The notes below the pieces were generated by a model. It was not told the origin of the DNA and did not search any database. It saw nothing but the letters and a program-made list of their open reading frames with translations. From Eledone cirrhosa (Eukaryota), in assembly GCA_964016885.1 (NCBI GenBank), contig OZ024743.1, forward strand, positions 53,754,001 to 53,818,000: a stretch of DNA of 64,000 nt, given 5' to 3'. Of this stretch, positions 25,811-41,227 are shown piece by piece (position 1 is the first letter of the stretch; every line of letters begins with the position of its first letter). A program made the position numbers and the translations under genes.

Positions 25811-28338
25811 GAGATGTGTGTGTGTTTGTATATAAGTGTATGCCTAGAGCGGATAGACTCCTGCCGATGTTAACTTTGCCTTTCATCATTTCAGGGATTA
25901 ATAGAATAAAGTGCTAGTCGAGGACTGGAGTGGATCTAGTCCCCATATTGCCGGCCTTGCATCTAAATTAGAAACAAATAACAACAATTTTAAATCAGAA
26001 AATGAAATTTACAGCTCACATCTATTTAGGTTTTTGCTGCTTTCCTGCGAAGTTGCTTATCAAAGGCGATTTTCTGTGTTTTAATGATAGAGACCCCAGC
26101 CCTATCATGAATACCAATGTGAAATCATGAGTCTTGTTGAAGAATACAATACATCACCTGGTTTAAGAACAGAACGCATGACCTTGTGATTATGAGCCTA
26201 ACACCCTAACCATTAGGATAAGAAACACCACTATTATAAAGCAGGTACAAACAAGTGTAATAACAACAAAAACAAAAGCAAAAAGAGAAACAAAAACATT
26301 GATAGGAATCGAGGCGATCCGATAGATTCCAACTATGGCGATATTTCAACCACACATTCCTCGTATTTTTATTTATAACCGAATTCACATCTAAAACTGC
26401 CTGAAGGTATTCTGCTCACATTGTAACTTATATAGAAATACTTTTACTGTTTACACAATGAAGGAAGGACATTGCCCGTGTAACATTTTCAGGGCCTCCA
26501 AGGCTGATTTGAATGAGGGAGAGTGGTATCCTCAAACCAGAGACCTGGTCCAAATGCTTGCAACAGGTTACCCTTAAAATATTTCTCAGGGAGATTCAGT
26601 GTGACAAAAATATGTGAATAGGCTAGCACTTTGAATTTTTACACTTTGAAATTTTACAATTGAATTGACTGGAGTAAGGTGAAATACTGGCGAGTAGATG
26701 GGTCTCGCCACGTTTTAAATATTACCCTAGAAACGCTGTATATTAATACGGCGCTCTTCGACTTCCCCAGGAGTTATGGGACCCCAACTAAAACGTGAAA
26801 TAATATATCATGCTCAAGGACACAACACACCTGCGGGAATCAAACTAACAGTCTTAGAATCCTGTGCTGGTCACCGTAACCACTGAACCACAGAATTACA
26901 GGGACAATGCATTATCTTGTTTAGCTGAGTTGTCTGGTTCAACGGGAAATAAAGTGTCGTGTTCTAGGGGATAGACAAAGATAGAGAGACGTATAGAGAG
27001 AGAGTTATTGGTGTGGAGAGAGAGGGCGAGGGGTTAACAGGGTGAGAGTTGGTGACAGATAAATAGAGAAATAGATAGATAAATAGAGAGAGAGAGAGCG
27101 AGAGATAGAGAGAGAGACACACACATACACATATGCATATACATATATAGTCTGTTGCATGTATACATACAACATACATAAATATATACATATATACATA
27201 CATACATATATACATACATATAGAACAATGTAAAGTAAAGTGTCTTGCTCAAGGACACAATGCGACGCAGTGAACCTAATTCATCTTGCGATCTTTGTTC
27301 TTGAACCGAACATCCTAACCACAAAGCCAGTCATTCACTTACACCTACATACACACACATACGCACACATACATACACATACATACACACACATACACGC
27401 AGACAGACAGGGGCCGGCGACTCCATTCCCGCCATACCACCATGTGACCTTCTGTTGGTCAATTGGTGTCAAATTCCATGACTGACATCAATTGACCAAA
27501 CTATGTAGTAGTTAAAAATGTCACATTTTTCAAAATTGCCCACTTGAAGCTCTTTACAACATAATAACGGCATCTTATTTCCTTCTATAATCTCTCTCTC
27601 TCCCTCTCTCTCTCTATCTATCTATCTCTCTCTCTCTCTCTCTCACTCCCTCTCTCTCTCACTCACTCTCTCCCTCCCTCTATCTCCCTCTCTGCAACCC
27701 CCTTTCTTCCTTTGTGAATGTCTCTTTATTCTTCATCTCTCACACATACATGCACATTCAAATATGTGTGTGTATGTGTATGTGTGTGTGTATATATATA
27801 TGTATGTATGTATGTATATATGTATATATATATATATATATACATTTATATATATATATATATATATATATATATATATATATACATACATATATATATA
27901 TATATATATATATACACACATACACATACGTGACTCTGTGTATGTATATATATATATATATATATATACACACACACATACACATACGTGACTCTGTGTA
28001 TGTGTATATATATATATATATATATATATATATATATATATATATATATATATATATATATACATACATACATATATATATATATACATACATACATATA
28101 TATATATACACACACATACGTGTCTCTGTTTGTGTATATATATATATATATATATATACACACAAACAGAGACACGTATTCGTCTATTTTTATGCACAGA
28201 ATAACAGAATACATATGTGTATATGTGCATGTATCTCTTTCTCTCTCCCTCTGTGTGTGTATATGTGTATGTGTATGTGTATGTGTATGTGTATGTGTAT
28301 GTGTATGTGTATGTGAACATGTATCTATCTATCAATCT

Positions 28339-29673
28339 GGTCGGGCGGAAGTGGCGAACACCTACATAGCGTCCGTCATCTACTACCGCCTGACCGTAGT
28401 GCCCTGCCCAAGGGAAACCCTCACCAAGATGGAGCGCGCGCTCTTCCAATTCCTTTGGAAGAGGCGGGCTCCTATGGTGAGGAGATCCATCTGCTGTCAA
28501 CACCCTTCGAAAGGAGGGCTGGGGATGCCGTGGCTAATGATGCGTAAACACGCATTAAGGCTACGGCACCTCTACGTATTCCTCACCGGACAACCGGTGT
28601 GGGCCTCGTTTGTGAGACGAACCTTTCCCAGACTCGTCTCACTCACCGAGCTGCAATCCTGGGTCAAGCAAAGACCGAGAAAACTGGGCGCCTGGCACAC
28701 TGAGTGTGCCCAGGCGCTCACCGCCCTCTGGCAGGCGGATCCGGTTATCAGTGGAGACTCCACCGCAACATTTTATAGAGGGCTGGTACGCAGCAGGTGC
28801 GACGACGCCCTCGGAGAAGCCCTAGACATGGAGGAGGACGAACTGGCCAGCCTGTTCGGTAGGACATTCAGCCCGGGACCTATGGACAACTTCCAGAAGT
28901 CCCTGGCCTGGCAGTGCTACCGAGGGGCTTTACCCGTTCGAGAAAGGCTCTACAGACACGGGCGCCCGGGTAGGGACCCCGCCAAAAAGATCTGTCCCAG
29001 ATGCGTGTGCGACGAGGAAACCGTTGCACACGCATTGGTACACTGCTCGGGCGTAGCCGATCTGTGGGGCTATGTCGAACAACTGCTGTCAAGGGTGGGA
29101 CCGATCCGGTTGACCACCGAGTCTATTGTAATGATCAAGCCGCCTCCCCCCTTCAAAGATGAAGCAGAGGCGGTGTTTCTGTGCGTAATAGCCATGGCGA
29201 AAGAGGTTGTATGGTGGACGCGTCTGAAAGGACTGAGGTCAGGCACCTTTCTCTCTGGCCAACAACTGGTCCGTTTCTTCCGATATCATTTCGGAAGAAG
29301 GATCAGGATGGAGAGAGAGGTGCTGCACCCCAGCCGTTTCTATGAAAGATGGGTGAAAGTGGCGAGAATGGCCCGTGTGAATGGGCCTTCACTCTACATC
29401 AGACTATAGGTGAGGAAGATGAAAGACCAAGGGAGCACCCCTTCTCTGTGCTCCTGAGGAGAAGGGTTGCACACTTTTTTCGGGGGTGTGTGCGACCCCC
29501 CAAGGCGCCTCCTCTCTATTGAGGATTTTGTTAAAAATTTTATTTTTTGTTATATCTTATTTTATTTTTATATTTTGTTATTGCCTCCTCCTTATTGAGG
29601 ACGCCTTTTTGTGTAAACTCCCCCCTTTGTACTTGTCCCACTTTTGATGCCCTAGTGGCAAATAAAAGAAACA
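28339..29673 (+). mobile_element. Tx1/L1-clade LINE, 5'-truncated copy A (ORF2 C-terminus open 28339-29409, then 3' UTR)
   Basis: [18 protein letters not shown]...FQFLW...GGLGMP...CPRC..ETVAHALVHC (zf-RVT-like); flanks tatctatctatcaatct| and |tatctatctatc. Confidence 0.9.
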
Positions 29674-39919: not shown

Positions 39920-40795
39920 TGTTTCTTTTATTTGCCACCAGGGCATCAAAAGTGGGACAAGTACAAAGGGGGGAGTTTACACAAAAAGGCGTCCTCAATA
40001 AAAATGAAATAAAATATAACAAAAAATAAAATTTATAACAAAATCTTCAATAGAGAGGAGGCGCCTTGGGGGGTCGCACACACCCCCGAAAAAGGTGTGC
40101 AACCCTTTTCCTCAGGAGCACAGAGAGGGCTTGCTCCCTCGTTCCTTCCTCTTTTCCACCTACAGGCTTATGTAAAGAGAAGGCCCATTCATACGGGCCA
40201 TTCTCGCCACTTTCACCCACCTTTCATAAAAACGACTGGGGTGGAGCACCTCTCTCTCCATCCTGATCCTTCTTCCGAAATGATATCGGAAGAAACGGAC
40301 CAGTTGTTGGCCAGAGAGAAAGGTGCCTGACCTCAGTCCTTTCAGACGCGTCCACCATACTACTTCTTTCACCATGGCTATTACGCACAGAAACACCGCC
40401 TCTCCTTCATCTTTGAAGGGGGGAGGCGGCTTGATCATTACAATAGACTCGGTGGTCAACCGGATCGGTCCCACCCTTGACAGCAGTTGTTCGACATAGC
40501 CCCACAGATCGGCTACGCCCGAGCAGTGTACCAATGCGTGTGCAACGGTTTCCTCGTCGCACACGCATCTGGGACAGATCTTTTTGGCGGGGTCCCTACC
40601 CGGGCGCCCGTGTCTGTAGAGCTTTTCTCGAACGGGTAGAGCCCCTTGGTAGCACTGCCAGGCCAGGGACTTCTGGAAGTTGTCCATAGGTCCCGGGCTG
40701 AATGTCCTACCGAACAGGCTGGCCAGTTCGTCCTCCTCCATGTCTAGGGCTTCTCCGAGGGCGTCGTCGCACCTGCTGCGTACCAGCCCTTTATA
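39920..40795 (-). mobile_element. Tx1 LINE copy F (open ORF2 C-terminus 40160-40741, nearly identical to A in ORF2)
   Basis: Protein differs from A at only a handful of residues; flanks (GATA)4 and gataaataga. Confidence 0.9.
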
Positions 40796-41227
40796 GATAA
40801 ATAGATTTATTCAATCATCTCTGGTACATTACCAGTACTTATTTAACAGAGGCTTTAGTGAGAATTTAACACAGAAATGTCCAACGCCATATTCCATACC
40901 ATCCACCCCACAACCACTGATGATATATTTATGAAATGTCTTCGAAGGAAAGATAGTCTGCTAAGAATGACTTGTAAGCGATGCATACGAGTCGCGCTTG
41001 GGTAAGTCAGATAATTAATAACTCATGAATATAGTAATCAACAGTAGATAATCAATTATCACACACCTTACTAGTAGATTTACCCGTCTGTGTATTATAT
41101 ATACATATATGAACACAACTAGCATAAGTTGTAAACATAAATGCGAGTAACGTGTACGTAAATTTATATTTGTATATATTTCAACGCGTAAGTTGAAATT
41201 TGAAAATGGGTTAGTAACAGTAATAAA

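Follow-up and report, generated by a model that had tools for sequence, protein, structure and literature searches.

A young LINE lineage of the octopod Eledone cirrhosa with a strong insertion preference for GATA microsatellites

Microsatellites are the insertion target of several described elements, among them Kibi (TC), Koshi (TTC), the crocodilian Tx1 elements (TTCC, TTTC), Waldo (ACAY), Mino (AC), Dong (TAA) and Togen (TG), and a GATA target is absent from the microsatellite-targeting elements named in the available sections of the four reports concerned (PMC4494074, PMC3812793, PMC4640811, PMC3747384). The origin of microsatellite targeting is described as poorly understood (PMC3812793). 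Here we describe a young lineage of long interspersed nuclear elements (LINEs) of the octopod Eledone cirrhosa, present as six copies in a 64,000-nucleotide stretch of contig OZ024743.1 (assembly GCA_964016885.1, positions 53,754,001 to 53,818,000; hereafter the window). The lineage has a strong preference for the motif T/ATCTAT, where the slash marks the insertion junction, and hence for GATA microsatellites, which read TATC on the sense strand of the element.

The lineage works like Kibi and Koshi, and the new part is its target. As in these elements of teleosts, which insert into (TC)n and (TTC)n, we find a retrotransposon without long terminal repeats (non-LTR) of the L1 group with an apurinic/apyrimidinic endonuclease (APE) and microsatellite-specific insertion (PMC4494074, PMC3812793); the likeness is drawn from their descriptions, and the octopod lineage differs in its TATC/GATA target, its secondary (TA)n target and its mollusc host. 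The crocodilian Tx1-1_Crp, Tx1-5_Crp, Tx1-1_Gav and Tx1-2_AMi also use tetranucleotide microsatellites, with a preference rather than absolute specificity, but theirs are the pyrimidine tracts (TTCC)n and (TTTC)n (PMC4494074). In Octopus vulgaris, 80 L1-Tx1 families have been annotated, 13 of them recently active (PMC13282606); they share label and host group with our lineage and may include the families described here or their relatives. The available main text of that report does not contain "GATA", "target" or "microsatellite" (singular, as whole words), the octopus repeat papers, in the sections available, give L1-Tx1 merely as an abundant class (PMC13282606, PMC8967140), and a term search of the accessible part of PMC12988792 gave no matches. 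A full-text literature search for a GATA-targeting or octopus target-specific Tx1 element returned no report; it did not cover Repbase or Dfam, which may hold such a family.

The six copies lie where a first-pass annotation of the window had placed them, copy A on the + strand and B to F on the - strand, and its description of their junctions was re-observed: all six have TATC at both ends (degenerate at the 5' end of F), in constant orientation. Copies F-E-D-C-B form a head-to-tail stack on the - strand. In window coordinates, with identities given to copies retrieved from elsewhere in the genome, and with ORF and UTR standing for open reading frame and untranslated region, the features are as follows.

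28322..28338, + strand: 5' junction of A, TATCTATCTATC plus a few extra bases
28339..29673, + strand: copy A, 5'-truncated; ORF2 residues 789-1145 (zf-RVT) and 3' UTR; 99.5% to full-length L047
29674..29686, + strand: (TATC)3, 3' junction of A
32293..32305, - strand: (TATC)3, 3' junction of B, continuing into (TC)/(TA) repeats
32306..38256, - strand: copy B, full-length, older subfamily; ORF1 and ORF2 decayed
38257..38324, - strand: (TATC)17 joining the 3' end of C to the 5' end of B
38325..39130, - strand: copy C, 5'-truncated, older subfamily; 72% to L047, 85% to the nearest relative retrieved
39131..39254, - strand: degenerate (TATC)31 separating D and C
39255..39500, - strand: copy D, 3' UTR only; A family, 99.6% to L047
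39501..39540, - strand: (TATC)10 separating E and D
39541..39902, - strand: copy E, 5'-truncated; sister family, 99% to other E-family copies
39903..39919, - strand: (TATC)4 separating F and E
39920..40797 (5' edge about 40790/40797), - strand: copy F, 5'-truncated; A family, 95% to L042

The 3' end of all six copies reads AATAAA(A)GAAA (degenerate in B) and two variable bases (NN), followed on the sense strand by TATCTATC. An 11-nt ATCTATCTATC within the 5' junction of A is found again at its 3' junction and likely represents a target-site duplication (TSD). At the 5' junction of F, the degenerate TATC (40791-40805) is partly microhomology. Copy B has matches to ORF1 at 37521-36062 and to ORF2, with the APE endonuclease and the reverse transcriptase (RT), at 35940-32538; stops and frameshifts disrupt its reading frames, a 78-bp segment is duplicated in tandem at 32841-33001, its ORF1 fragments matched no Pfam family and its endonuclease fragment gave only a sub-threshold DUF match. 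The copies had been taken for a single family, which they are not: A, D and F belong together, E is a sister, and B (78% identity over ORF2) and C are older relatives, making at least four subfamilies. Among tracts of at least 12 nt, the window holds 129 (TA)6+, 27 (CA)6+ and 30 (GA)6+ and only 10 (TATC)3+, and 8 of these 10 lie at or between the six copies. Because the five stacked copies have tracts in common, the window contains only two independent loci, and the case therefore rests on genome-wide data. An empty-allele check of copy A, in which no joint bypassing it was among the short-read joints listed, was uninformative either way.

Copies in the 3.0-Gb genome were counted by exact-motif pattern searches. 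The 28-nt 3' motif of the A family was found at 3,454 places and the 3' motif of the E family at 5,349, and the 5' motif of one subfamily had 379 matches; the window copy was the sole exact match to the C-family 3' motif, so C and B were left out of the genome-wide counts. A-family 3' junctions read NNT/ATCT in 2,934 cases, NNT/ATAT in 374 and neither in 146, while a search with a shorter stem gave 5,230 NNT/ATCT and 222 NNT/ATAT for the E family. Junctions with (TA)n thus make up about 11% of A-family versus 4% of E-family copies. For the flanks, we took the 100 A-family copies at the head of the listing, which lie in the first 97 Mb of contig C1. All of them share a single-base register and one orientation, and none has the reverse (GATA-strand) orientation. 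The 3' flank was (TATC)n in 64 of them, and none of the junctions opened with a CA repeat or with the GA/CT that a (TC)n or (TTC)n target of the Kibi/Koshi type would give. Of the nearby tracts that the first-pass annotation had called free of copies, (CA)n and (GA)n accordingly remain without one directly at a sampled 3' junction, and (TA)n, one base different per unit, is a real if weak secondary target. Twenty random 10-kb genome stretches served as background, with eightfold more TATAT than TATCT. The preference per available site is then about 61-fold for TATCT over TATAT and about 340-fold for TATCTAT over TATATAT (7-mers, first 100 copies), both rough figures given a background of 200 kb with six TATC tracts. 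Eight A-family copies with TA-type junctions, among the matches listed, form a local cluster at C2:406.9-408.7 Mb, which may be a duplicated region. A link between a CT variant of the terminal dinucleotide and TA targets (about 20/100 listed versus 11/100, counted by eye) was too weak and was not used.

Whether the repeat is part of the target can be judged from the 5' junctions. In the 82 truncated copies of the sample, the 25 nt next to this junction held (TATC)n in 47 cases, (TA)n in 7, a single ATCTAT in 4 and other sequence in 24, against a background in which 8 nt of TATC repeat occur in 0.24% of 25-nt windows (135/57,000). The threshold used by Kojima for target-specific Tx1 elements is more than 20% of flanks of one sequence kind (PMC4494074); here, (TATC)n lies well above it, with 47/82 truncated 5' flanks and 64/100 3' flanks. 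Flank classes agree between the 5' and 3' sides (TATC/TATC 35, TATC/TA 3, TA/TATC 1, TA/TA 6; Fisher p=7e-5). Copies inside minisatellites have the identical minisatellite on both sides, and no TATC tail follows copies that lie in (TA)n, in a minisatellite or in unique DNA, whose 3' flank repeats the 5' flank.

Twenty-five truncated copies have TSDs anchored by non-repeat bases. These duplications start T/ATCTAT, with a median length of 18 nt (range 11-36); position -1 is T in 24, positions +1 to +6 are A25 T25 C23 T25 A23 T24, and positions -5 to -3 are T18 A19 T19. In five copies whose ATCT units can be counted against unique DNA (L050, L058, L063, L184, L195), the two sides have the same number, which means that no detectable tail was added by the element; as exceptions, one copy has fewer units on the 3' side and two rows have more, both in compound repeats and one with a separate equal-count match. 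These observations support the conclusion that the TATC repeat is mostly target and not tail. The proposal of GATA targeting made for the window therefore holds genome-wide, and the pattern that had been named as its undoing, mostly non-GATA 5' junctions with the repeat as a mere tail, is not what the truncated copies show. What does need amendment is the target itself: the preference for (GATA)n microsatellites is strong, but the recognised site is the short T/ATCTAT motif, which is used in unique DNA and minisatellites as well.

Full-length copies are less telling than the first-pass annotation had assumed in using 5' TATC as evidence of targeting. The repeat precedes the 5' start in 36 of 40 of them and most start (C/A)TCTGG, and extra TATC-like bases lie between the anchored duplication and the element start in L131/L132, L107 and L175. 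The transcript thus likely starts in or at the upstream repeat, so that full-length junctions are partly confounded by the element's own TATC-like 5' bases and truncated copies are the cleaner test. E-family 5' junctions (n=30) were mapped roughly, there being no full-length reference, as 8 TATC, 10 other and 12 exceeding the locus; in several rows the "other" label stands for an internal deletion or a degenerate TATC, and the figures were not used as a count. ATCT repeats ahead of truncation points were seen in short-read contigs as well.

We consider it probable that a young, abundant LINE lineage encoding APE and RT has come to lie in fixed register and orientation at T/ATCTAT through target-primed reverse transcription aimed at this motif. 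In this scheme, the GATA strand would be cut by the endonuclease at a TpA step, in ATAGAT^A. Reverse transcription would then start from the 3' end so released (...AGAT), placed on the element RNA directly past GAAA-NNU; it would probably be helped by pairing with UAUC that the transcript carries over from the flank of its donor copy, and such pairing would account for the failure to copy any poly(A). That the element RNA extends to the junction is implied by the terminal NN dinucleotide, which tracks the element tree (9 changes versus a shuffle mean of 29; 0/500 shuffles as low). The target duplication would result from a second nick about 11-21 nt further downstream, and the insertion would leave TATC on both sides, allowing later subfamilies to re-use the tract and to build mixed-age head-to-tail stacks like F-E-D-C-B. 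Nuclease preference assisted by RNA pairing is favoured over pure RNA guidance. Several points weigh against targeting of the motif as set out here. The nick position, RNA read-through and pairing are derived from junctions only, the fold preferences are as rough as stated above, the longest TSDs (up to 36 nt) owe part of their length to compound repeats, and units added inside pure repeats are undetectable. In addition, 27 of all 100 copies have "other" 5' flanks, of which 14 are accounted for (minisatellite or short duplication, interrupted element, variant repeat, locus edge) and 13 are unexplained; 7 of these 13 have TATC on the 3' side only, as a tail would give.

Pure RNA guidance, which we regard as a rather unlikely alternative, would have the endonuclease nick any TpA step and the TATC preference arise from primer pairing with UAUC of the donor flank, so that specificity is inherited via the landing site and not via the protein. 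The corresponding idea, equally doubtful, is that the RNA of the element serves as a "memory" of the target, with transcripts beginning and ending in flanking UAUC that, instead of the endonuclease, picks the next site. No poly(A) was found at the 3' end of any of the 100 sampled copies, and AATAAA stands 7-8 nt before the junction. A polyadenylation signal usually lies 10-30 nt from 3' processing, which would place processing in the flank and leave the RNA with a few UAUC bases able to pair with the primer. The TATC-like bases added before the start of some full-length copies (L131/L132, L107, L175) and an endonuclease hairpin loop equal in length to that of human L1 likewise agree with RNA guidance. 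Pairing between RNA and the nicked strand has been proposed to set the RT start in SART1Bm and R1Bm, APE elements that also have a defined target; they belong to the R1 clade and use the telomere repeat and 28S rDNA, and SART1 has poly(A), unlike the octopod copies (PMC7265360). Lineage clustering of TA-target copies is expected under RNA guidance, but such copies showed 19 changes on the element tree against a shuffle mean of 21.9, with 38/500 shuffles as low (44/500 with a shorter alignment), which is not significant. Moreover, conservation reaches upstream of the nick (-5 to -3), beyond primer pairing, although a repeat target alone could also give this, and the Tx1L endonuclease alone is reported to be sequence-specific in vitro (PMC1950540). 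If RNA memory were true, the lineage would be an RNA-guided LINE that seeds its own sites and could be switched to a new target by changing the flank, and a large share of the genome's long GATA tracts may be its work.

It is very unlikely that TATC is instead a tail made by the element, with loosely AT-directed insertion and 5' repeats that are the tails of earlier copies. TATC is present on the 3' side only in 7/100 copies and 23/100 lie directly behind another copy, as this explanation would have it, but with tandem copies excluded TATC still occurs at the 5' junction of 32/66 truncated copies, and copies in (TA)n, minisatellites and unique DNA are tailless, their 3' flank repeating the 5' flank. 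The anchored duplications largely refute it. Long TATC tracts bear on both sides of the question. A pattern for such tracts, in one boundary phase, had 12,361 genome matches, and the first 30 represent 23 distinct loci, of which 11 adjoin a lineage member (2 judged from a nearby ORF1 match or a compound tract) and 12 have no member at the tract. Long TATC tracts can thus be found with no copy of the element, although about half of those sampled have one. TATC/TA tracts also adjoin the end of an AT-rich interspersed repeat, about 250 bp long and partly present as an inverted pair (L243:1040-1500; L252, L004, L191, L113).

Passive accumulation in repeat-rich regions, or a stack produced by tandem duplication or misassembly, might be suspected in so microsatellite-rich a region but has practically no probability, being refuted by the single-base register and one orientation of 100/100 copies and opposed by the lack of any CA/GA repeat directly at a sampled 3' junction, by the mixture of four subfamilies with different truncation points in the stack, and by joints of 3' end, TATC and next copy in short-read contigs from two studies (X1, X6).

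Full-length copies are 5.7-5.8 kb long and encode an ORF1 of 592 aa with a CCHC knuckle and an ORF2 of 1,145 aa; both ORFs are intact in 11 of 40 copies selected by a full-length 5' start. The ORF2 of L047 (1,145 aa) aligns to human L1 ORF2p over residues 8-857 (E 2.5e-48), the best match among solved structures, with matching APE and RT catalytic motifs. The window copies have RVT_1 and zf-RVT domains, and homologs carry PF03372, PF00078 and PF13966. By its predicted APE endonuclease, RT and C-terminal zinc motif, together with two ORFs, 5' truncation and TSDs, the lineage is classed as an APE non-LTR retrotransposon of the L1 group. It resembles human L1 ORF2p (PDB 8sxt) in the layout of endonuclease and RT, the catalytic motifs, TSDs and a TpA nick, the last deduced here; human L1 differs in its TTTT/AA site and poly(A) tail, and the CCHC knuckle of ORF1 sets the octopod lineage apart (PMC1950540). 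The nearest database proteins are unnamed records at 69%, followed by others at 38-45%. Protein searches and a cluster look-up gave no named Tx1, Kibi or Koshi protein among the matches, and the Atlas protein clusters were generic endonuclease/RT only. In a quick RT tree (45 rows), the octopus RTs group with 11 unnamed relatives (SH-like approximate likelihood ratio test, SH-aLRT, 99), separate from plant L1s. Membership of the Tx1 clade, as initially supposed, is plausible; the tree was built without named Tx1, Kibi, Koshi or Keno sequences, and the clade is therefore unnamed by it. Other full-length subfamilies start directly after TATC tracts (L238, L241, L041, L046, L064, L017), and these further 5' ends indicate that the lineage has subfamilies beyond the four of the window. 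Many copies have large internal deletions (L104, L109, L036, L037, L053, L269, L280, L282, L286), and the 5' part of L194 is inverted.

With this lineage, TATC/GATA would join the few microsatellites known as targets of APE retrotransposons, and microsatellite targeting would extend to cephalopods. Its more than 8,800 young 3' ends, from two subfamilies, and its intact copies make it a good natural system for separating the contributions of the nuclease and of RNA-DNA pairing, in which the different stringency of the sister families (TA about 11% versus 4%) is a built-in comparison. That about half of the sampled long GATA tracts adjoin a copy matters for microsatellite markers in octopuses and for the question of how the tracts arose.

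Elsewhere in the window, a long exon of a noc/elbow zinc-finger gene lies at 10309-11859 (+), 99% to an Octopus vulgaris protein and about 50% to those of other molluscs. A 67-bp minisatellite (21.7 copies) occupies 6866-8318 and a 17-bp array 63638-64000. Another LINE RT fragment (52757-53629, - strand; RVT_1 and DUF6451 matches), which we take to be RTE-like, lies between (AT)n tracts.

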